Source: Candidatus Moraniibacteriota bacterium
Lineage (GTDB): Bacteria; Patescibacteriota; Minisyncoccia; Moranbacterales; UBA11712
NCBI GenBank assembly: GCA_030679895.1
Contig: JAUXSN010000047.1
Location: 65,328 to 129,327 of the forward strand
Direction: 5' to 3'
DNA: 64,000 bases
The notes under the pieces are model-generated. The model was not told the DNA's origin, made no database searches, and worked only from the letters and a program-made list of their open reading frames with translations. Numbering within the stretch: the first letter of the stretch is position 1; every line of letters starts with the position of its first letter. Of the stretch, positions 1,252 to 51,082 are shown piece after piece. The position numbers and the translations under genes were made by a program.

Positions 1252-1938
1252 CTAAAGTTCAAGAAAATAAAAATTAGGATGCCTTCCATCTGAAAAAGCA
1301 TTTGCGATTCGATAAGTGATTCCGTTTTCATCAATCTGATGTTCCTTGTGTTGGTGTCCAGAGATCATCATTTTAACATTCTGATGAAACTCAATAGTTC
1401 TTTTGAAATCATTATAAATAGGGAAAAGACCATATCCGTTTCGATGATCGAATATCGGTTGGTGAGAGGCGATCAGAACATCCTTATTTGTGTTCAGAAC
1501 GTAATTCAACCATCGCAGTTGAGCAGGACAGATTCCACCGGATGATTTTTCCGGACCGCAGTAATTCGTATCAAGGACAACAACTCTCGTATTTCCGACA
1601 TCCTTTGTGAAATAATTCATTTTCATCCCGTCGTGATTCCCATTGACCGCAATGACTTTTATTCTTTTTTTCTTGAAAATATTGAGAACTTTCCTCCTGT
1701 ATGATTTTTTGCTCTCGATAATATCTCCAGTAATAATAACATTTTTAATTCCTTTTACTCTGAATATCCTGATTGTTTTTTTCAGAAGAGACTGATACAT
1801 ATTCGGATAAACAATCCTGCTATCCATATTCACTTTGTCCTTTTCCTTCCCTGCATGAATATCAGAAATCCAACCGACAGTTTCGGCTCTCACTGGGAAA
1901 GCAAGCAGAAAAATGATGATAAATAAGATTTTGTTCAT
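1252..1938 (-). CDS. secreted calcineurin-like metallophosphoesterase
   Basis: N-terminal signal peptide (MNKILFIIIFLLAFPVRA). GDIIESKK and GNHD motifs match the metallophosphatase fold. Confidence 0.75.
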   Translation of the reverse strand: MNKILFIIIFLLAFPVRAETVGWISDIHAGKEKDKVNMDSRIVYPNMYQSLLKKTIRIFRVKGIKNVIITGDIIESKKSYRRKVLNIFKKKRIKVIAVNGNHDGMKMNYFTKDVGNTRVVVLDTNYCGPEKSSGGICPAQLRWLNYVLNTNKDVLIASHQPIFDHRNGYGLFPIYNDFKRTIEFHQNVKMMISGHQHKEHQIDENGITYRIANAFSDGRHPNFYFLEL

Positions 1939-1961
1939 TTGTATACAAATAAGAGGTTTTT

Positions 1962-2047
1962 CCTAAAGTTTAACTTTAGGAATGGTTACTATCTTGACCT
2001 CTGTCAAGCATTTTTCCGCCAATATACCCCAACATTCAATGTTGGGG
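1962..2047. repeat. cluster of three intergenic palindromes (cctaaagttTAAactttagg; cttgacCTCTgtcaag; ccccaacattCAatgttgggg)
   Basis: Perfect inverted repeats read directly from the sequence. Same motifs as at 1190-1230, 2526-2544 and 14604-14622. Confidence 0.75.
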
Positions 2048-2057
2048 TGGGTTATTT

Positions 2058-2501
2058 TTAATTTGTTGGATTAAATGTAATGATAGATGACCGATTTATT
2101 TTGTATTTTTTGAATAATTTATCTTCTAAAAAACTACTTATCTTATATGCTTTATGTATCTTTTCCATTAGATCGTCGCGTAATTTATCTATGTCCTTTT
2201 GAGTAAGACCATCCTTCTTAAAGATATCGTGGGCGAGCTTATTTCTAATATCTCTTATTTCGTTAAACACACAGAACTCTGAAGAGTATATTTTTTTGGA
2301 ACACAGCAAACGCTTATTTGCTAAATCAAATGAACGCTCCTTACTTTCATTCACTAACACGCCTTCAATAATTGATGAATGAATAAAAACATCGCGATAT
2401 TGCTTTCTTAGATATTTATCGAACTGTTGAACTACCCAGTCATGATGACTTAGATTTTTAGACATTTCTTTTTTTATATTCTTTATAAACAAAATAACCA
2501 A
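2058..2501 (-). CDS. hypothetical protein with HEPN-like Rx4H motif (RNKLAHD)
   Basis: RNKLAHDIF fits the R-N-x-x-x-H-x-Y/I motif of HEPN/DUF86 (HepT-like) RNase domains. The likely start is the internal MSKNLS. Confidence 0.45.
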   Translation of the reverse strand: MVILFIKNIKKEMSKNLSHHDWVVQQFDKYLRKQYRDVFIHSSIIEGVLVNESKERSFDLANKRLLCSKKIYSSEFCVFNEIRDIRNKLAHDIFKKDGLTQKDIDKLRDDLMEKIHKAYKISSFLEDKLFKKYKINRSSIITFNPTN

Positions 2502-2522
2502 AAAATACTACTATTCCTAAAG

Positions 2523-2735
2523 TTAAACTTTAGGAAATTTTACATCTGGAATATATCCTTGCTCTGAACAGTAGCTAATAGAATATTTATTTGCTTCTTC
2601 TTGACTGTCGAATTGCTTGTCTAGTGAATTTTTTTGAATTTCAGTTTCAGAACCATTATGTGTGATTTTCTTATAACTGGAAATCCATTTACCATTAGTC
2701 AGTTGATAGGAGTTTGGCTCAAAGAATGTTTGCAT
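2523..2735 (-). CDS. small hypothetical protein (70 aa) immediately upstream of the HEPN-like gene
   Basis: ORF only. Its 3-prime end overlaps the palindrome cctaaagttAAactttagg (2526-2544). Confidence 0.3.
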   Translation of the reverse strand: MQTFFEPNSYQLTNGKWISSYKKITHNGSETEIQKNSLDKQFDSQEEANKYSISYCSEQGYIPDVKFPKV

Positions 2736-2829
2736 GTCGAATAAATTAAAAATAATTCAGCTTACGAATCGAATATTTTTTGTTGAGCTATCCGCAGAGC
2801 GTCGAAAAGTGGAAAGTAATTAAAGATTT

Positions 2830-3102
2830 TTATCCTTTCCTTCTTATATGATCAGAGATTTTACCCAATAATTCCGCAATAAAACCCAAAATTGCGCCTA
2901 CTATTGCGCCTTTTCCGATGAGAAACCAATCAAATTTATTTCCTTTAAACAGATAGAAGATAGCAACTATAATTCCAATGATTATGCCAGCCGTTAAACC
3001 GCCCCAAACCGCATTTCGTTTTCGCCAAAAGACTATCAACAAAACAACTGCTACTACTCCAAAAATTATCCAAATGTTAACATTTGACATATTTTTTTGC
3101 AA
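2830..3102 (-). CDS. small integral membrane protein (about 3 TM segments)
   Basis: Hydrophobic stretches IWIIFGVVAVVLLIVF, GLTAGIIIGIIVAIFYLF and GAIVGAILGFIAELL. Confidence 0.5.
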   Translation of the reverse strand: MQKNMSNVNIWIIFGVVAVVLLIVFWRKRNAVWGGLTAGIIIGIIVAIFYLFKGNKFDWFLIGKGAIVGAILGFIAELLGKISDHIRRKG

Positions 3103-3107
3103 AATTT

Positions 3108-3404
3108 TTATAGTTCATTCCCAATCCTTTTTTGACTGTCTTCGTATTTGCCAACTTTCCCATAAAACTTGACTGTTTTGCCGATACTAGGAACATGGAG
3201 TAAAAATGGACCATCAAGTTCATCTTTACCTTTATCAAGAATAGAAACTCCGTCATCAATTATCCAAGCGTCATCTTTTAATAATTGCTCATAAACAAAA
3301 TTGGGATTTTTCGCGGCTTTGCGCCAAAATGACAAATTCCCATGTTTTATGTAAATAAAATAGAAGATTACAGCTAAAATAATTATCCAAATGATTATGC
3401 TCAT
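3108..3404 (-). CDS. N-terminally membrane-anchored hypothetical protein
   Basis: TM helix MSIIIWIIILAVIFYFIYI followed by a soluble domain. Confidence 0.45.
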   Translation of the reverse strand: MSIIIWIIILAVIFYFIYIKHGNLSFWRKAAKNPNFVYEQLLKDDAWIIDDGVSILDKGKDELDGPFLLHVPSIGKTVKFYGKVGKYEDSQKRIGNEL

Positions 3405-3420
3405 ATTTTTTATTATTACT

Positions 3421-3639
3421 TTATGAAATATTCAACACTCTTTTTATAAATCTTCGCAAACTTCTTAACTTCCAAAATATCAAGTCTATATTCTCCTGAT
3501 TCAACTCTTGAAATATAAGATTGGGGGGGCGCTTAACTTTTTTAGCGACTTCGATTTGCCGAAGTCCGGCTTCCAACCTTGCTTTTCGCAATTTTTCGAT
3601 AAACTTGGCGTATTCCTTTGTTTCTATCGCCTTGCCCAT
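3421..3639 (-). CDS. XRE-family helix-turn-helix transcriptional regulator (short)
   Basis: FIEKLRKARLEAGLRQIEVAKKV is a typical HTH_3 (Cro/C1) motif. Confidence 0.55.
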   Translation of the reverse strand: MGKAIETKEYAKFIEKLRKARLEAGLRQIEVAKKVKRPPNLIFQELNQENIDLIFWKLRSLRRFIKRVLNIS

Positions 3640-3734
3640 ATACTATCAAGAATATATACGAAAAGCAAAAATACTGCTTTAAAAAGCAGTATTTTCGTTT
3701 TGGGCGGTTTGTTCCACCCGCAGAAGTTCAACCT

Positions 3735-5873
3735 CTACGATTTCAGAAACATCCTCGCCACTCTCAACTCTTCGTATGAAAATTCATCACCGAGGATTTC
3801 GCGGACGGGCGACAGGGCTGATCCGCCGGATTTTTGGAAGGCGCGCGCTATTTTTTCCATTTTCTTGGCCGGTGGACGCAAATAGTTGATATTGATTTCT
3901 TCTCCGGCACTGGTCAGCTTTTCGATATGCGATGTTATTGTCCCGGGAGTCATGCCTCTCGCTTTCGCCATTTTTTCAATGGACATTTTTTGCTGAACGA
4001 GTTTTTTGGTTTCCTCGTAGGTTGATCCCGCGCGGATCGCTCGGCGCGCCGTGGCTGGTTTTCCCGCCGGAATATTTTTTTCTTCGAGATTATTTTCCTT
4101 GGCATAGGTTCGGATGACCTCCGTGAATATTTTTCCGTATTGCTTCAGTTTTTCCTCGCCTACTCCGCTTATTTTGGAAAAGCTTTCTTCGCTTTGAGGC
4201 AAATACGATGCCATTTGAGTGAGAGCCAAATCGCCGAAGACGACAAAGGGCGGCACTCCTTTTTCGTCCGCTATCTTTTTGCGCAAAAGCCGCAACTGAT
4301 CAAACAATTCTCGATCATAGTCAACTTCAAACGCAGTTCTTTTTCGAATCGCTTCGGCGCCGGATTCGGGCTTAGACAAAAGGATATTTTCCCTATTTTT
4401 GAGAAATTCCTTTCCTCGTTCGCCCAGTCCGAGAACCGGATACTCATCTCCCATTTTTGCGATCAATTTTTTGGAAACCAATTGGCCGATGATATTTCTC
4501 AATTCAACTTTCGAAAAATCGTCCGCAATACCGAATACCGACAATTTTTGATGGCCGCGTTCCGATATTTTTTTATTCTTCGCTCCCGTGAGCACATCGA
4601 TGATATAGCTTGCGCCAAACCGTTCCCCCGTGCGGACAATCGCCGAAATAATTTTTTGGCTGATTACGGTCGCGTCGAATTCAACTTTTGGCGAAAGGCA
4701 AACATCGCACCCGCCGCATTTTTCCGATTCGTACTCCTCGCCGAAATAGGAAAGCAAATGACGGCGGCGGCACGCTGACAACTCGCAGTATTCAACCATC
4801 TGATTGAGTTTCTTGTATGCGTTGTCCCGTTCGCGCTCCTCCTCGATCTGCCGGATAAAAAATTGCTGCTTGATCGTATCCCCGAAAGAATAGAAAAGAA
4901 CGCACCGGCTTGGAAGTCCGTCGCGTCCGGCCCGTCCCGTTTCTTGATAGTATCCTTCAATTGATTTTGGCAAATTATAGTGGACGACCAAGCGCACATC
5001 CGGCTTGTCGATTCCCATCCCGAAAGCGATCGTCGCCACGATGATTCGCGCTTCATCGCGAATGAATTTTTCTTGATTCTTTTTCCGTTTCCCGCTTTCA
5101 AGACCGGCATGATACGCCAAAGCGGAAAAGCCTTCCTCGCGAAGATCCGCCGCCAAATTTTCCGTGTTCTTTCGGGAAAAACAATAGATGATCACTGATT
5201 CGTTTTTGTGCGCTTGTAATATTCCAATCAGCTGGTCATAGGAATCTTTTTTGGGAAGCACCGCGTAGGAAAGATTCGGACGATTGAAACTGGAAATGAA
5301 AACCTTCGCTTGCCCAAGTGACAGTTGGCGAATTATATCCTCCCGCACTTTTTCCGTGGCGGTGGCCGTGAGCGCCATCACCGGAACACCCGGAAAAATA
5401 TTTCGGAGTATTTTCAGATTTCTATAATCGGGACGGAAATCGTGGCCCCACTCGCTGATACAATGCGCTTCGTCAATGGCGATCAAGCTTATTTTCAACT
5501 CCGACAAAAAATTTTGAAAGCCGGGGTTCGCCAATCTTTCCGGGGCGGCGTAAAGAATTTTCAGCTCTCCCGTTCTCGCTTCCGTTTGTGTCCGGTCGAT
5601 CTCCGCGGGACTCAAAGTGCTGTTAATAAACGCGGCCGGAATACCATTGGCTTTGAGAGCATCAACCTGGTCTTTCATGAGAGCGATAAGCGGCGACACG
5701 ACCAGCGTCATTCCCGGCATCTTTAGCGCGGGAAGTTGATAGCAAAGCGACTTTCCCCCGCCGGTCGGCATAAGAACAAACGCGTCTTTTCCAAGAAGTG
5801 CCTGGCTGATAATTTCCTCCTGCAAAGGACGAAAACGATCAAAACCGAAACGATTTTTGAGAAGATTTAGCAT
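3735..5873 (-). CDS. recQ: ATP-dependent DNA helicase RecQ
   Basis: DEAH-box helicase motifs (LVVSPLIALMKDQ, DEAHCISEWGHDFR), zinc-binding RQC cysteines, a C-terminal HRDC-like region. Length 712 aa. Confidence 0.9.
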   Translation of the reverse strand: MLNLLKNRFGFDRFRPLQEEIISQALLGKDAFVLMPTGGGKSLCYQLPALKMPGMTLVVSPLIALMKDQVDALKANGIPAAFINSTLSPAEIDRTQTEARTGELKILYAAPERLANPGFQNFLSELKISLIAIDEAHCISEWGHDFRPDYRNLKILRNIFPGVPVMALTATATEKVREDIIRQLSLGQAKVFISSFNRPNLSYAVLPKKDSYDQLIGILQAHKNESVIIYCFSRKNTENLAADLREEGFSALAYHAGLESGKRKKNQEKFIRDEARIIVATIAFGMGIDKPDVRLVVHYNLPKSIEGYYQETGRAGRDGLPSRCVLFYSFGDTIKQQFFIRQIEEERERDNAYKKLNQMVEYCELSACRRRHLLSYFGEEYESEKCGGCDVCLSPKVEFDATVISQKIISAIVRTGERFGASYIIDVLTGAKNKKISERGHQKLSVFGIADDFSKVELRNIIGQLVSKKLIAKMGDEYPVLGLGERGKEFLKNRENILLSKPESGAEAIRKRTAFEVDYDRELFDQLRLLRKKIADEKGVPPFVVFGDLALTQMASYLPQSEESFSKISGVGEEKLKQYGKIFTEVIRTYAKENNLEEKNIPAGKPATARRAIRAGSTYEETKKLVQQKMSIEKMAKARGMTPGTITSHIEKLTSAGEEININYLRPPAKKMEKIARAFQKSGGSALSPVREILGDEFSYEELRVARMFLKS

Positions 5874-5886
5874 AAAAAATCAATTT

Positions 5887-32243: not shown

Positions 32244-32660
32244 CTAATTTACCATATCAAGGGGATTAAAATTTTGCTCTTTCAATTTCAAGAGGGGATA
32301 AAATAATGGCTCCGGAAGTTCGTCCCAAGAAAACCAATCCCATTTCTCCCATTTTTCAGGTTCCATAATTTTGGGCTCACCTGAATCATAATCCGCAACC
32401 ATGTGAATCGTCACTACATGCTTTCCTTCTGTTTCAGGAATATCATTCGTCACCGCTCCGAATCTGATATTTTTTATTTTTATTCCCGCTTCTTCCAGTG
32501 TTTCTCTTTTTGCGCACTTCTCCCAGTTTTCGCCAAATTCAAGCCATCCGCCTGGCGGGCTCCAGGTATTCTTCCCGTGTGAACCGATTCTTTTCCCCAT
32601 CAAGATTTTTCCATTTCGCAAGATGTATACTCCAATGCCCACTCGGACTTGTTTTTCCAT
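32244..32660 (-). CDS. NUDIX hydrolase
   Basis: Nudix box GGWLEFGENWEKCAKRETLEEAGI. Start trimmed to MEKQVRV so the CDS does not overlap the tRNA-like sequence. Confidence 0.75.
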   Translation of the reverse strand: MEKQVRVGIGVYILRNGKILMGKRIGSHGKNTWSPPGGWLEFGENWEKCAKRETLEEAGIKIKNIRFGAVTNDIPETEGKHVVTIHMVADYDSGEPKIMEPEKWEKWDWFSWDELPEPLFYPLLKLKEQNFNPLDMVN

Positions 32661-32674
32661 AAAGTTATTTAAAT

Positions 32675-32739
32675 TGGTCGGGCTGGAGGGAGTCGAACCC
32701 TCTGTTTCACGAACCTTCACCCCGCACCAAAATTCGCTT
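32675..32739 (-). other. 3-prime half of an outer Pro-type tRNA-like gene (anticodon-stem 3-prime strand, variable loop, T-arm, acceptor 3-prime strand CAGCCCG-A, encoded CCA)
   Basis: Minus-strand sequence ...TTTTGGTGCGGGGTGAAGGTTCGTGAAACAGAGGGTTCGACTCCCTCCAGCCCGACCA. Confidence 0.55.
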
Positions 32740-32810
32740 TCGGGCTGCCGAGAATCGAACTCGGATTACACGAACCCGAATCGTGCGTAATGCCACTATA
32801 CCACAGCCCG
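32740..32810 (-). tRNA. tRNA-Pro(CGG), complete and nested between the two halves of the outer tRNA-like gene
   Basis: Acceptor CGGGCTG/CAGCCCG with A73. Anticodon stem cacga/tcgtg with loop TTCGGGT. T-loop AGTTCGATTCT. Confidence 0.85.
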
Positions 32811-32861
32811 ATATTTTTGGTGCGGGGCGCGTCGCGCGTGTTGCCGATACACTACAGCCCG
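32811..32861 (-). other. 5-prime half of the outer Pro-type tRNA-like gene (acceptor CGGGCTG, D-arm GTGT-ATCGGCA-ACAC, anticodon-stem 5-prime strand CGCGA) followed by CGCGCCCCGCACCAAAAATAT
   Basis: CCCCGCACCAAAA here is a 13-bp perfect inverted repeat of TTTTGGTGCGGGG in the 3-prime half. Confidence 0.55.
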
Positions 32862-33494
32862 TTATATTATTTCTTCCGAGACTTTTTTTAGTATTTCCAC
32901 CGCTTTTTGATTATTTCTCAACTTTCCCAAATCGTCAATGATGCCATCCGCTTCTTTTTTGAGGGACAACTGCTTGCAAAGGAATATCTTGATCGTTTTA
33001 TCGGACGGCTTTTTTTCAAAATACTTGGCGACAATAGCGTACCAATGTTCCAGAGTTTCATATGAAACAATCTGATCGCTAAGTTTTATTTTCAAGTTCG
33101 GAGGATTATTCAAAAGGTGGACAAGCTTTTCCCAATTACTATATTTTTCGTAGAGCAATTCATCTTCCAGCAGCCTTGCCGGAAGGCCTCCAAAATCTTC
33201 GGCGTATTTCAGCGAATAAAAATTATATTTATTCAAAATTTCGTTTCTTTTCATATCGCACCATATATGAAATTTCCATCCGGCTTCAAAAGGAGCGAGT
33301 CCGTTGAAGTCCAGATCAAGCGTCTCAAAATTATGGTGCGTCTGGGACCGGGAGATCTCCTTGGACATCCGCCGGATATCCGGAAACAAACTTCCCAAAA
33401 TGAAACTGTCCGCCTCTTTCATCGGATGCCGGTCGAGATATTTTTTTGCGTAAACGATATGCGCGACTTGGGAAGCCATAAGCGGAAATTTCAA
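32862..33494 (-). CDS. hypothetical protein
   Basis: ORF of 210 aa. No family recognised. Confidence 0.4.
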   Translation of the reverse strand: MKFPLMASQVAHIVYAKKYLDRHPMKEADSFILGSLFPDIRRMSKEISRSQTHHNFETLDLDFNGLAPFEAGWKFHIWCDMKRNEILNKYNFYSLKYAEDFGGLPARLLEDELLYEKYSNWEKLVHLLNNPPNLKIKLSDQIVSYETLEHWYAIVAKYFEKKPSDKTIKIFLCKQLSLKKEADGIIDDLGKLRNNQKAVEILKKVSEEII

Positions 33495-33601: not shown

Positions 33602-35161
33602 CTATTTCACCCAGTACTTATTTTTTATTTCCTTATCTTCCTCTTCTTTTTTCTCCTCAATTTTTTCTTTCGCCATTTCTCGCAGCTTCGGCAGATTTTC
33701 TTTTGACAATTCTTTCGCTCGCTTCAATAATATATTCTTTTTATTTTCCTCGGGATTTTCGATGACTTCCGAAAGCAAAACGTCCAGGATCGCGCCAAGC
33801 ATCGGACCCGGTTGCAATTTCAGTTCTTTCATCAAATCATTTCCGTTCACTTTGAGCATCTTCACCGAAAGCGGGTCGCTCGAAATTTTGTCGACCATAT
33901 ATTTGAAGTGTCGGAGCTTATACGGAACGGCTTTCGGAACGCCCGAACCAAGCCGGTCGCCGACACGAAGGTCAATCAGGTCGTCAATGTTTTCCAGCCC
34001 CACTTTTCGTACCAACCGGCGCACGCTCGAAGCGCCCACTTCGTCGACGTTATAATAGAACATATGGTTGTCGACAAGCAGCCGGACTTTTTTGATAATT
34101 TCCGAAGAATATTTCAATCTCTTCAAGATTTTCTCGACCACCCGCGCGCCGACGTGGTCATGGTTATAGAATGTTGAGTAGGCGCCTTCGCCTCTTTTGG
34201 TTTCAGGCTTGGCGATATCGTGAAACAAAGTCGCAAGGCGCACTTCCAATTTTTCTGAAGGACAATTCTTGAGAGACAAAATGGAATGTTCATAGATGGT
34301 ATAAATATGATGCCGGTTCTGCCCGACGCCGTATCCCTTTTCGAGTTCGGGAATAATATATTGAAGCAATTTCAATTCGCGCAGCAGTTCAATTCCCTCC
34401 GCCGCAAAGTCCGAAACCAAAATTTTGTTCAGCTCATCCTGAATTCGCTCAAGCGCGATGAATTTCAAATTTTTTGCGTTTTTCGCAATCGCTTTTTTTG
34501 TCTTCTCTTCGATCACAAACGGAATTCTCTCGCTCAATTTTCTCGGCCCCGTGGTTCTTTTGATATTTATATCACCGCCAAGCGTAACCGCAAACCGCAC
34601 CGCCCGCATCATCCGCAAAGCGTCCTCATCAAACCGCTCATTCGCGTCCCCCACCGCACGAATTATTTTATTTTTCAAATCTTCCTGACCGCCGAATAAA
34701 TCGATAATCTCATATCTGGGATTTTTCAAGATCCGACCTTGAGGAATTTCCCGATGAATAGTCGGGGAAGGAAAAGGTCGTACCTTAGAAAAATCTATCC
34801 GCAACGCTAGCGCATTGATCGTGAAATCCCTCCTCGACAAATCTTCTTCCAGCGTCTTCGCAAACTTCACCTCATCCGGCCGCCGCTTGTCCGAATATTT
34901 CGATTCAATACGATATGTCGTCACCTCAACAACACCAACTTCTGATTTCACACCAACGGTGCCGAATGCATTTTCATAAAAACTATCGGGAAACAATTTA
35001 GCAACTTCTTCCGGCTTCGCGTTCGTCGTCACGTCCCAATCCTTCGGTTCAACATCCATGAGAAGATCCCTCACGCACCCGCCCACAACAAAAGCCTCAA
35101 AACCAGCGGCTTCAAGTTTCTGGATAATTTCGATTATGGGTTTTGGAATTTTCTTGATCAT
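33602..35161 (-). CDS. cca: CCA-adding tRNA nucleotidyltransferase with HD domain
   Basis: Pol-beta NTase head (VVGGCVRDLLM...DWDV), poly(A)-polymerase-like body, HD motif (HDIAKP). KE-rich C-terminal tail. Confidence 0.85.
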   Translation of the reverse strand: MIKKIPKPIIEIIQKLEAAGFEAFVVGGCVRDLLMDVEPKDWDVTTNAKPEEVAKLFPDSFYENAFGTVGVKSEVGVVEVTTYRIESKYSDKRRPDEVKFAKTLEEDLSRRDFTINALALRIDFSKVRPFPSPTIHREIPQGRILKNPRYEIIDLFGGQEDLKNKIIRAVGDANERFDEDALRMMRAVRFAVTLGGDINIKRTTGPRKLSERIPFVIEEKTKKAIAKNAKNLKFIALERIQDELNKILVSDFAAEGIELLRELKLLQYIIPELEKGYGVGQNRHHIYTIYEHSILSLKNCPSEKLEVRLATLFHDIAKPETKRGEGAYSTFYNHDHVGARVVEKILKRLKYSSEIIKKVRLLVDNHMFYYNVDEVGASSVRRLVRKVGLENIDDLIDLRVGDRLGSGVPKAVPYKLRHFKYMVDKISSDPLSVKMLKVNGNDLMKELKLQPGPMLGAILDVLLSEVIENPEENKKNILLKRAKELSKENLPKLREMAKEKIEEKKEEEDKEIKNKYWVK

Positions 35162-37112: not shown

Positions 37113-37673
37113 TTATTTTGTTTTGTTCAGAACAAAGTTCAGAAATTTTTCCGTCGCCTGAATCTTCGCCCATCTTTTGATGTATTTCCAATCAAGTTTT
37201 TTTTGAATCGCGATTATTGATTCAATATCCTCCAATTGGCGCGTGGACTTTGTCTTCTCATACCACTGCAATTTTATGAGAACAAGATCCTCAGGTGAAC
37301 AAAAATACAATTTTTTTCCGGCGATTATTTTTGGAATTCTCCTCTTGATGCGAGATTTGTCAAACAGTTCATCTTTGAGTATCCAGAAATCCACTTTCAC
37401 CCCGCTCGACGGATGGATGAAATTAAATTCCCCGCCTCTGGCGAGCGCGTCTTGAATCATTTTCTTGTCCACATATGAATCCTTGTCAATTTTTCGCAGC
37501 TCCTCAAAAATTTCATCCAACTTTTGAGGGACGAGTTCGATAACAATATCAATATCCGCTGTGAATCTGGGCCTGCCCCAAACAACCACGGCAATACCGC
37601 CGGTTATAATATAAGGGATTTTGAGTTTATTTAGCGTATTTCCTATGCGAAACAGCAGTTCTTCTTGTTCCAT
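37113..37673 (-). CDS. nucleotidyltransferase-fold protein (Pol-beta superfamily; AbiEii/MNT-like)
   Basis: IITGGIAVVVWGRPRFTADIDIVIE is a GS/GG...D-x-D nucleotidyltransferase motif. Confidence 0.5.
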   Translation of the reverse strand: MEQEELLFRIGNTLNKLKIPYIITGGIAVVVWGRPRFTADIDIVIELVPQKLDEIFEELRKIDKDSYVDKKMIQDALARGGEFNFIHPSSGVKVDFWILKDELFDKSRIKRRIPKIIAGKKLYFCSPEDLVLIKLQWYEKTKSTRQLEDIESIIAIQKKLDWKYIKRWAKIQATEKFLNFVLNKTK

Positions 37674-50768: not shown

Positions 50769-51082
50769 GCCTGGGTAGCTCAGTGGTAGAGCAGAGGACT
50801 GGTTTTCGGTCCGTCTCGCGGTAACGCGGGAATGAAAATCGGGTGAATTCGAGGAAACCTAAATTCAAATCAGGAAGATTTGGCTAAGGCAATCTCGAGC
50901 CAAGCTTCGATGGGCAATAGTTATCGAAGAAGGTGTAGAGACTAGCAAGTGAGTCCCAACAATAACCTTGCAAAAGCGCCCGATATCCCAAAGAGGGATA
51001 ATGAAATAGTCCGATCCTTAGGGAAACCTAAGTACGAAAAAGGAAAATCCTTGTGTTGGCAGTTCGATTCTGCCCCCAGGCA
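50769..51082 (+). tRNA. tRNA-Phe(GAA) interrupted by a group I intron in the anticodon loop
   Basis: 5-prime exon GCCTGGGTAGCTCAGTGGTAGAGCAGAGGACT (to U33, 50800). 3-prime exon GAAAATCCTTGTGTTGGCAGTTCGATTCTGCCCCCAGGCA (from 51043). Joined, the exons give a canonical tRNA-Phe close to the E. coli tRNA-Phe. Confidence 0.8.
50801..51042 (+). mobile_element. group I intron (IC3, Azoarcus/cyanobacterial tRNA-intron type), 242 nt, no ORF
   Basis: Internal guide GGTCC (50808-50812) pairs with exon GGACU via a U-G wobble. Terminal omega-G at 51042. Core near-identical to the Azoarcus intron (GAGCCAAGCTTCG...GAAGGTGTAGAGACTAG...; GAATTCGAGGAAACCTAA). Confidence 0.8.

Follow-up and report, generated by a model that had tools for sequence, protein, structure and literature searches.

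How tRNA genes come to be interrupted, whether by introns, splitting or permutation, is a long-standing puzzle whose answers have mostly been inferred from archaeal end states. In the split tRNAs of Nanoarchaeum, for instance, leader sequences pair to hold the halves together. Among short non-coding repeats, miniature inverted-repeat transposable elements (MITEs), REP/REPIN sequences and Correia-type elements are small, end in inverted repeats or form a hairpin, and have no transposase coding; to our knowledge, a complete tRNA has not been described as cargo for any of these families. Integrating elements leave tRNA gene fragments behind, as documented in a prokaryote-wide survey (PMC9897764), and at the tRNA-Thr locus of the archaeon Caldiarchaeum a recombinase-bearing element separates an orphan 5' fragment from the complete tRNA downstream of it (PMC3293823). 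For the Patescibacteria, the intron survey describes only group I introns, none of them in tRNA-Pro (PMC13011429). Here we analyse a stretch of 64,000 nt from Candidatus Moraniibacteriota (contig JAUXSN010000047.1 of assembly GCA_030679895.1; hereafter the window), in which a complete tRNA-Pro(CGG) gene, the inner tRNA, sits within the anticodon loop of a second, outer tRNA-Pro(CGG) gene. Our literature searches returned no case of one complete tRNA gene lying within another's anticodon loop, and we rate the locus as a new variant of tRNA-gene disruption. We consider it likely that the resident tRNA-Pro(CGG) was displaced at the DNA level by a tRNA-bearing palindromic insert, that the inner gene is the working one and that the process is a recurrent one.

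Read directly, the minus strand from 32861 to 32675 has the layout given in the original prediction, whose description of the outer halves and the inner tRNA matches the sequence exactly. The pieces are listed below in the order of the minus strand; L numbers here and in the text denote related loci used for comparison.

32832 to 32861, minus strand: positions 1-31 of the outer ('O-type', ancestral) tRNA-Pro(CGG), CGGGCTGTAGTGTATCGGCAACACGCGCGA, with acceptor 5' strand, D arm and anticodon-stem 5' strand
32828 to 32831, minus strand: outer anticodon-loop positions 32-35, CGCG (ancestral TTCG), in which TT to CG makes up the sole two differences from the intact ortholog
32815 to 32827, minus strand: left arm of the palindromic element, CCCCGCACCAAAA, one member of inverted-repeat pair I3
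32811 to 32814, minus strand: 4-nt linker ATAT from the left arm to the inner tRNA, read from the sequence
32740 to 32810, minus strand: complete inner ('I-type') tRNA-Pro(CGG), 71 nt, with no encoded CCA, found by ARAGORN and Rfam
32733 to 32739, minus strand: 7-nt linker AAGCGAA from the inner tRNA to the right arm, alignable to the 3' portion of the empty L006 element's loop
32720 to 32732, minus strand: right arm of the palindromic element, TTTTGGTGCGGGG, the other member of pair I3
32716 to 32719, minus strand: element tail TGAA (compare CAAG in L006 and L023), boundary uncertain by 1 nt
32713 to 32715, minus strand: outer anticodon-loop positions 36-38, GGT, unchanged by comparison with the ortholog
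32675 to 32712, minus strand: outer 3' half, TCGTGAAACAGAGGGTTCGACTCCCTCCAGCCCGACCA, with anticodon-stem 3' strand, variable loop, T arm, acceptor 3' strand, A73 and encoded CCA

The two arms form the perfect 13-bp inverted repeat (32815-32827 and 32720-32732) that had been reported, and as RNA this helix grows to 15 bp by the addition of one C-G and one G-U pair. No further copies of the 13-bp arms were found in the window. Folding of the whole 187-nt region, a check proposed with the original prediction, gave -84.8 kcal/mol with z = -4.5, and none of 200 shuffles folded equally well; the RNA fold contains the outer acceptor, the outer D arm, the 5-bp anticodon stem, the 15-bp helix, the inner tRNA and the outer T arm, and the DNA fold resembles it. 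Run SRR13727519, assembled independently by Logan, carries an identical locus. The non-tRNA sequence around the inner tRNA amounts to just 21 nt on one side and 27 nt on the other. Among the 14 tRNAs of the window this is the only one whose leader and trailer pair, which rules out such pairing as a general trait of tRNAs in this genome.

The relatives that we retrieved come from metagenome-assembled genomes that bear the labels Moraniibacteriota, Parcubacteria or Patescibacteria. When one genome per species was scanned for the 22-mer spanning the outer T arm and acceptor, eight loci were recovered, and in L003 to L007 the 22-mer belongs to an intact tRNA-Pro(CGG) with the normal loop TTCGGGT between CGCGA and TCGTG. 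The L007 gene agrees with the outer halves at every position; the genes of L003 to L006 differ from them at one variable-loop base, and those of L004 and L006 also in the encoded CCA. Outer positions 1-31 are the same as in the intact orthologs of L011 and L003 to L007, and the outer 3' half is the same as in L011 and L007. The outer halves, originally described as a Pro-type tRNA-like gene, are thus identical to related intact tRNA-Pro(CGG) genes and not a chance resemblance. The 22-mer is also shared by a tRNA-Pro(CGG) of L008 (DYIX01000082.1, a metagenome-assembled genome labelled Haliangium ochraceum), where 39 tRNA genes for nearly all amino acids are packed into ~4.2 kb (1650-5878), a cluster that looks like the tRNA-gene array of some bacteria and large phages.

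The most informative of these comparisons is with L011 (GCA_003154175.1), which is fully syntenic with the window (Ddl, CCA enzyme, 202-aa gene, tRNA, NUDIX, 105-aa gene and 74-aa gene) and is its closest relative on both flanks, with 74% and 86% protein identity. The intact gene of L011 has the same stop codon immediately in front of it and the same spacer behind it; in the window, likewise, nothing separates the outer 5' half from the upstream gene's stop codon. Because the syntenic locus holds an intact gene at the identical position and with the same flanks, the outer halves are the ancestral tRNA-Pro(CGG) of this lineage and not a paralog. The earlier proposal of a tRNA-Pro paralog inactivated by insertion of a tRNA gene was therefore essentially right about the inactivation and has to be amended with regard to the paralog, in whose place we put the resident gene.

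To locate the break, we enumerated every single excision that leaves a 7-nt loop. Removal of 112 nt (32716-32827) yields CGCG|GGT, that is C32 G33 C34 G35 G36 G37 U38, with the anticodon CGG in register and no loop nucleotide missing, and it is the one excision that restores the anticodon; the statement that no 7-nt anticodon loop can be rebuilt does not hold. Joined at 35/36, the outer gene is identical to that of L011 at 73 of 75 positions and departs from it only at the two neighbouring positions 32-33 (TT to CG). Since the 112-nt removal restores both the anticodon and this 73/75 match, we place the break between positions 35 and 36. Position 33 of tRNAs is near-universally U; the rebuilt loop CGCGGGT carries G33 and C32 instead of U33 and U32 and so lacks the U33 of a functional tRNA-Pro. 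The TT to CG change is seen wherever the perfect arm CCCCGCACC abuts position 35, and the diverged leaders (L020 and the upstream junction of L019) have CC instead of CG. Two random substitutions would land exactly on 32-33 with a probability of ~4e-4.

The inner tRNA, which the original prediction had called complete, is found by ARAGORN as Pro(CGG) at 32739-32811 and by the Rfam tRNA model at 32740-32810 with 58.8 bits and E = 4e-10 (threshold 29 bits), and neither program calls the outer halves. Its cloverleaf has U8, G18G19, the T-loop TTCGA, U33, G35 G36 G37, A73 and C1-G72, features that we take to fit a functional bacterial tRNA-Pro. It is identical at 71 of 71 positions to the complete tRNA of L019 and differs from the native gene of L022 at three positions, one of them a compensatory stem pair. 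In L022 the same site holds just this inner-type tRNA, undisrupted and with AAAAATAT in front of it, and the NUDIX protein of L022 is 82-84% identical to that of the window. Outer and inner tRNAs share 57 of 73 aligned positions (~78%), and the repeated blocks between them (families D1-D3) are 76-91% identical. These comparisons show that the inner tRNA is a sister-clade allele of the same locus, with the same anticodon as the outer gene, and we presume that it is the working gene and probably the sole functional one.

What remains of the insert after the tRNA is taken away has counterparts of its own. In L006, a 39-nt palindrome, CCCCAGCACT...AGTGCGGGG followed by CAAG (19-57), lies between the upstream stop codon and an intact outer-type tRNA, and in L023 (1068-1106; also in L024) a 39-nt homolog lies inside an orphan tRNA fragment, between TTA and CGCACGA. 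No tRNA is found inside the GC-footed palindrome CCCCAGCACT...AGTGCGGGGCAAG of L006 and L023, and no T-run follows it there, which makes it no obvious terminator. The left arm CCCCGCACCAAAA of the window is homologous to the left arms of these 39-nt elements and to the 'leader' of L019, and the right arm TTTTGGTGCGGGG to the right arms GTGCGGGG of L006 and L023. Minus its tRNA, the window insert measures 42 nt and aligns to the elements of L006 and L023/L024, with invariant arm cores and a common tail xAAG. Because the insert without its tRNA aligns to these empty palindromes, the locus can be said to have three layers, an outer tRNA, a palindrome in its anticodon loop and an inner tRNA in the loop of the palindrome.

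With its perfect 13-bp arms, the element has the terminal inverted repeats of a MITE. No target-site duplication is seen at its three positions, where the flanks are CGCG/GGT (window), TAA/CGGG (L006) and TTA/CGCA (L023), and there is one copy in the window and one per related locus examined. Searches with Rfam returned no family for the palindrome or for the orphan halves. The junction pattern TCGGCAACACGCGCGA-N(6-36)-CGGGCTGT had no match in JGI metagenome contigs, blastn against phages gave no match, the 25-mer of the inner T arm and acceptor is absent from viral contigs, and the palindrome-with-cargo pattern is absent from phage and viral collections. Viral matches to a 17-mer and to the empty palindrome were dismissed as chance, lying in coding DNA without tRNAs, as was an isolated 11-mer arm match in L017 that has no partner arm. 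As a separate observation, the end of the right arm, CGGGGTG, can pair at 6/7 positions with the outer acceptor 3' strand CAGCCCG (32679-32724, minus strand) and would form a tRNA-like minihelix with the outer T arm, to which Rfam gave a weak, sub-threshold mascRNA match (14 bits, E = 8). The arms also resemble a tRNA 3' end (GCCCCGC-A-CCA, left arm) and a tRNA 5' start (GCGGGGTG), and may be derived from tRNA end sequences.

The upstream gene divides the related genomes in two. Clade A comprises the window and L011 (74% to each other) and clade B comprises L019, L020 and L023 (66-73% to each other), with 57-63% identity between the clades. The outer type is native to clade A and the inner type to clade B. 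Rearranged forms of the locus in clade B and allied loci read as follows, from the upstream gene onwards.

L020 and L021: stop codon, inner-like positions 1-31, CCCG, the arm-like leader CCCTGTTAAATAT and a complete third-type ('T-type') tRNA-Pro(CGG)
L019: truncated inner-like fragment, leader, third-type-like 5' half, CGCG, left arm and a complete inner-type tRNA
L023 and L024: inner-like positions 1-35 with native TTCG, a 15-nt spacer and a complete outer-like tRNA

The third type has the acceptor CGGGACA/TGTCCCG in L020/L021, and inner, outer and third types score alike as tRNAs (57-60 bits). L019, with two stacked orphan 5' fragments, carries CGCG-CCCCGCACCAAAAATACAT before the inner-type tRNA that is 71/71 identical to that of the window, and shares CGCG-CCCCGCACCAAAAATA in front of this tRNA with the window. 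In every rearranged genome the fragment beside the upstream stop codon belongs to the type native to the clade, a foreign type supplies the complete tRNA, and all breaks in L019, L020/L021 and L023/L024 can be placed at 35/36. The junction CGCG-CCCC follows two different 5' halves, in the window and in L019, and homologous leaders precede two different cargo tRNAs. None of these rearranged relatives has kept a 3' half or a right arm. The new tRNA of L019, L020 and L023 ends exactly where the old tRNA ended, which would fit a later deletion between shared CCCGA ends. The orphan fragments are decaying, with acceptor-stem substitutions, truncation and a 39-nt insertion, and because of these changes and the missing 3' partner we regard them as relics. 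The comparison with related genomes that had been called for thus shows the outer gene intact in syntenic L011 and the orphan 5' halves degenerate in other relatives, the latter speaking against an intron.

Several further features of these loci were recorded. A gene of ~120 aa resembling nucleoside 2-deoxyribosyltransferase lies between the 202-aa gene and the tRNA-Pro in L019 (1456-1827), L015 (697-912) and the P0002 contig; in L019 it truncates the oldest orphan tRNA fragment. What looked like a bigger insert in a metagenome relative at 86% was explained by such a gene occupying the extra space, as in L015 and L019. On the 10,894-bp contig of JGI metagenome 3300075153 that encodes P0125, a 393-nt gap without a called gene separates a 201-aa gene from NUDIX, more than is needed for an intact tRNA (~90 nt) or the nest of the window (201 nt), and it may be a deeper nest; a 77-aa GIY-YIG open reading frame (ORF) follows ~1.4 kb downstream on this contig. 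In L023, the 202-aa gene is followed, ahead of the orphan fragment, by an AT-rich stretch of ~80 nt (962-1044) in which TTCAAAAT/GTGCAAA motifs recur; the stretch is absent from the other relatives.

Taken together, these data suggest that a 112-bp insert cut the original gene between anticodon positions 35 and 36, and that this insert was a small GC-rich palindromic element bearing in its loop a complete tRNA-Pro(CGG) of another sequence type. Transcription would start at a promoter-like site (32938-32910) or reach the locus by read-through from the upstream gene. RNase P would then cut before inner C1 and a 3' endonuclease after A73, and because the inner tRNA has no encoded CCA it would need the CCA-adding enzyme, whose gene lies 800 bp upstream, for completion. 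The single-stranded linkers of 4 nt and 7 nt would keep the inner acceptor stem accessible, and the 15-bp leader-trailer helix may offer an extra cleavage site to a double-strand-specific nuclease. The outer pieces of ~51 and ~65 nt would be by-products, leftovers and not exons. The original suggestion of a non-canonical processing substrate thus survives trivially, in that the inner tRNA must be cut from a longer transcript, and not otherwise. That the outer halves are pristine can be put down to a recent event. In the Moraniibacteriota (Patescibacteria) the process would be recurrent, with incoming tRNA-Pro(CGG) alleles, usually behind a left arm, displacing the resident at 35/36, and with later deletions taking the right arm and the old 3' half and leaving decaying 5' orphans.

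Certain observations sit uneasily with displacement by a tRNA-bearing insert. The nested form, with right arm and 3' half kept, occurs only in this genome and in the identical Logan copy; since it is known from one allele, there is no variation for a constraint test on the outer halves. The contig of a relative at 94% is uninformative, as it stops inside the outer D arm. Displacement does not account for the TT to CG change at 32-33, which recurs at the same junction in L019. A 7-nt loop with the anticodon CGG in register results from the excision at 35/36, a position at which introns are known to interrupt Patescibacteria tRNA genes (PMC13011429); because the loop is restored and the site is known, removal at the RNA level keeps a small probability. 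A mobile cassette in particular is made harder to sustain by the lack of a target-site duplication, of a second copy in the 64 kb or the related loci examined, of a recombinase or transposase within 5 kb and of a viral or phage copy.

As the way of entry of the insert we nevertheless prefer, tentatively, a site-directed insertion of a non-autonomous, palindrome-flanked cassette. This would account for the exact palindrome-with-cargo architecture, for the shared CGCG-CCCC junction, for the homologous leaders and for the presence of the element at three different positions. More speculatively, and we are doubtful here, the insert could represent an undescribed class of miniature cassettes that home to 35/36 of the resident gene with the same isoacceptor identity, disable that gene and acquire both its role and its promoter. 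If so, the host would become dependent on the cassette's copy of the tRNA, and the reciprocal invasions between clades would be its footprint: inner into outer type in the window, outer into inner type in L023, third into inner type in L020 and inner into third type in L019. The nested and half-deleted loci would then be successive stages, the window being the freshest, and the system would offer a model for the origin of split and intron-bearing tRNA genes.

The main rival, to which we also assign a rather low probability, dispenses with a mobile element and has tRNA-Pro(CGG) alleles of sister strains repeatedly patched into the resident gene by recombination or repair, through illegitimate or short-homology recombination or through a switch of template at either palindrome, the anticodon arm or the GC-rich one close by. 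Near-identity between these diverged genomes is confined to islands formed by their tRNA genes, and breakpoints would cluster in the anticodon loop because it is bounded by the longest identity blocks, the 8-nt ACGCGCGA and the 6-nt GGTTCG. The incoming tRNAs are, moreover, sister-clade alleles of the same locus and not exotic genes, the element is single-copy wherever it was searched for, and no enzyme gene is near. The CGCG junction common to the window and L019 would suit a patch endpoint inside the 8-nt block, and the 3' ends of L019, L020 and L023, which fall at the old position, would suit a crossover in the shared CCCGA. However, identity blocks of 6-8 nt are far short of what RecA-type recombination usually needs, and the window groups with the outer-type clade on either side of the locus, which means that no long homologous anchor tract was used; for the same reason we ruled out a long recombination tract. 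Such patching would also leave unexplained the arm at 4/5 junctions and the exact palindrome-with-cargo.

That the insert is the remnant of an integrative element (phage, plasmid or island) is improbable. A recombinase would have integrated the element, with its own tRNA-Pro(CGG), in the anticodon loop, deletion would have reduced it to 112 bp and the arms would be inverted core sites. tRNA anticodon loops are reportedly classic integrase targets, as Williams is said to have described in 2002. An orphan 5' fragment upstream of a complete tRNA is known for an archaeal recombinase element (PMC3293823), element-derived tRNA gene fragments are widespread (PMC9897764), and the order stem-spacer-arm ... 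arm-spacer-stem resembles attL/attR. But the locus holds no element body and no integrase within 5 kb, phage and viral collections are without a match, and the empty L006 element lies outside any tRNA. The junction spacers CGCG and TGAAGGT differ from each other and neither equals the ancestral loop, unlike the product of a conservative recombinase, and each functional tRNA is a foreign gene in its entirety instead of a host-element chimera. Because the spacers differ and the working tRNAs are not chimeras, we consider this origin less likely than recombination.

The original prediction had also raised the possibility of an intron that encodes a tRNA, and this reading is not supported. A search for the group I core (RF00028) that finds the intron at 50792-51033 elsewhere in the window returned nothing at this locus even at E<=10, and the insert departs from group I introns in that its 5' exon would end in G35, the insert itself in A, and its length is 112 nt. 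No bulge-helix-bulge motif was predicted either; both the minimum free energy and the centroid structures show a 2 x 5 internal loop beside the continuous 15-bp helix. We know of no protein-only tRNA splicing in bacteria and of no splicing endonuclease in this group. It is the absence of a group I core, the wrong boundaries and length, the absence of a bulge-helix-bulge, G33 in the joined product, the redundant anticodon and the decaying 5' orphans of the relatives that lead us to set the intron aside. An arrangement at the RNA level in which the 112 nt are removed and both tRNA-Pro(CGG) are made, be it from a tRNA-encoding intron or from a split tRNA held by the helix, is accordingly very improbable: the 7-nt loop with CGG regained at 35/36, outer halves free of mutation, a helix that draws the two junctions together, RNase P and RNase Z ends (3'-OH and 5'-phosphate) that would in principle be ligatable and the occurrence of Patescibacteria introns at 35/36 (PMC13011429) speak for it, but it has neither a ribozyme core nor group I boundary nucleotides nor a predicted bulge-helix-bulge, its product would have G33 and duplicate the anticodon of the inner tRNA, removal of the inner tRNA alone would leave 41 extra nt and no loop, and the orphan 5' halves of relatives decay without 3' halves, L019 already looking like a relative that keeps the inner tRNA and has lost the outer 3' half.

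The surroundings of the locus are bacterial, with a GC content of ~42% and neighbouring genes for IF-2, D-Ala-D-Ala ligase, a class II CCA-adding enzyme with an HD domain, and NUDIX and MazG hydrolases. The features that bear on the locus are these.

32862 to 33479, minus strand: upstream gene, conserved, 205 aa, no Pfam family; syntenic marker for orthologous loci
32244 to 32660, minus strand: downstream NUDIX hydrolase gene; syntenic marker
33602 to 35161, minus strand: CCA-adding enzyme gene (ORF; orthologs in L011 and L019 carry PF01743, PF12627, PF01966 and PF13735)
32910 to 32938, minus strand: promoter-like TTGACG-17-AATAAT, candidate promoter for the whole locus by consensus match only, ~50 nt upstream of the outer 5' end

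Six promoter-like sites were found in the region, with 3.0 expected. None of the 10 ORFs within ~5 kb of the locus belongs to a recombinase or transposase family. The window has 13 called tRNAs and one uncalled tRNA-Phe with a group I intron, and no other orphan tRNA pieces were found in it; weak tRNA-like matches near 15.5 kb turned out to be ordinary coding sequence. The tRNA-Phe(GAA) (50769-51082, plus strand; RF00028 with 87.3 bits at 50792-51033) is split after U33 (33/34) by an intron that ends in G, and joining of its exons GCCTGGG...GAGGA-CT and GAAAA-TCCTT...CCCAGGCA produces the loop CTGAAAA; the gene is missed by ARAGORN. Elsewhere, a 186-aa protein (37113-37673, minus strand) with a DUF6036/DUF2204 match and a weak match to AbiEii toxin nucleotidyltransferase may be one half of a toxin-antitoxin or abortive-infection pair.

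For the puzzle of how tRNA genes become interrupted, these loci provide a graded series in related bacteria that runs from an intact gene, through a palindrome beside the gene and a nested tRNA at 35/36 with perfect halves, to stacked 5' orphans. They imply that a tRNA gene of a minimal genome can be replaced in place by the allele of another clade, and that this history is missed by standard tRNA finders, which report the inner gene only. A self-targeting tRNA cassette, if the insert proves to be one, would add a new kind to the known mobile elements; if it does not, the locus is still an unusually clean case of tRNA genes as exchange hot spots between diverged genomes.

Set against the known systems, the locus shares with MITEs, REPINs and Correia elements the small size, the inverted repeats or hairpin and the varied positions among genomes (L006, L023 and the window), and differs from them in lacking a target-site duplication, in having one copy per region examined and in having all copies within the same ~200-bp locus. 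As in the disrupted tRNAs of archaea, a long GC-rich helix at the break holds the halves together, and the locus exemplifies one way for a tRNA gene to be split, but here the host is bacterial, no bulge-helix-bulge is predicted, the halves are contiguous and the insert carries a second tRNA. With the group I introns of Patescibacteria (PMC13011429) it has in common the phylum, the 35/36 site and an interrupted gene that standard tRNA finders miss, whereas those introns are self-splicing, longer than 200 nt, preceded by U at the 5' splice site and terminated by G, on all of which points the insert differs. Like att-site fragments, finally, it involves a targeted tRNA gene, orphan non-functional pieces beside a complete tRNA and several states of one locus. 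In att-site systems, an element body with a recombinase is present, the fragment directly repeats part of the working tRNA, and that tRNA combines host and element sequence; at this locus, in contrast, there are a 112-bp insert, a whole tRNA of foreign type, inverted repeats and both of the old halves. The Caldiarchaeum tRNA-Thr locus, with its orphan fragment upstream of a complete gene, is the closest precedent.

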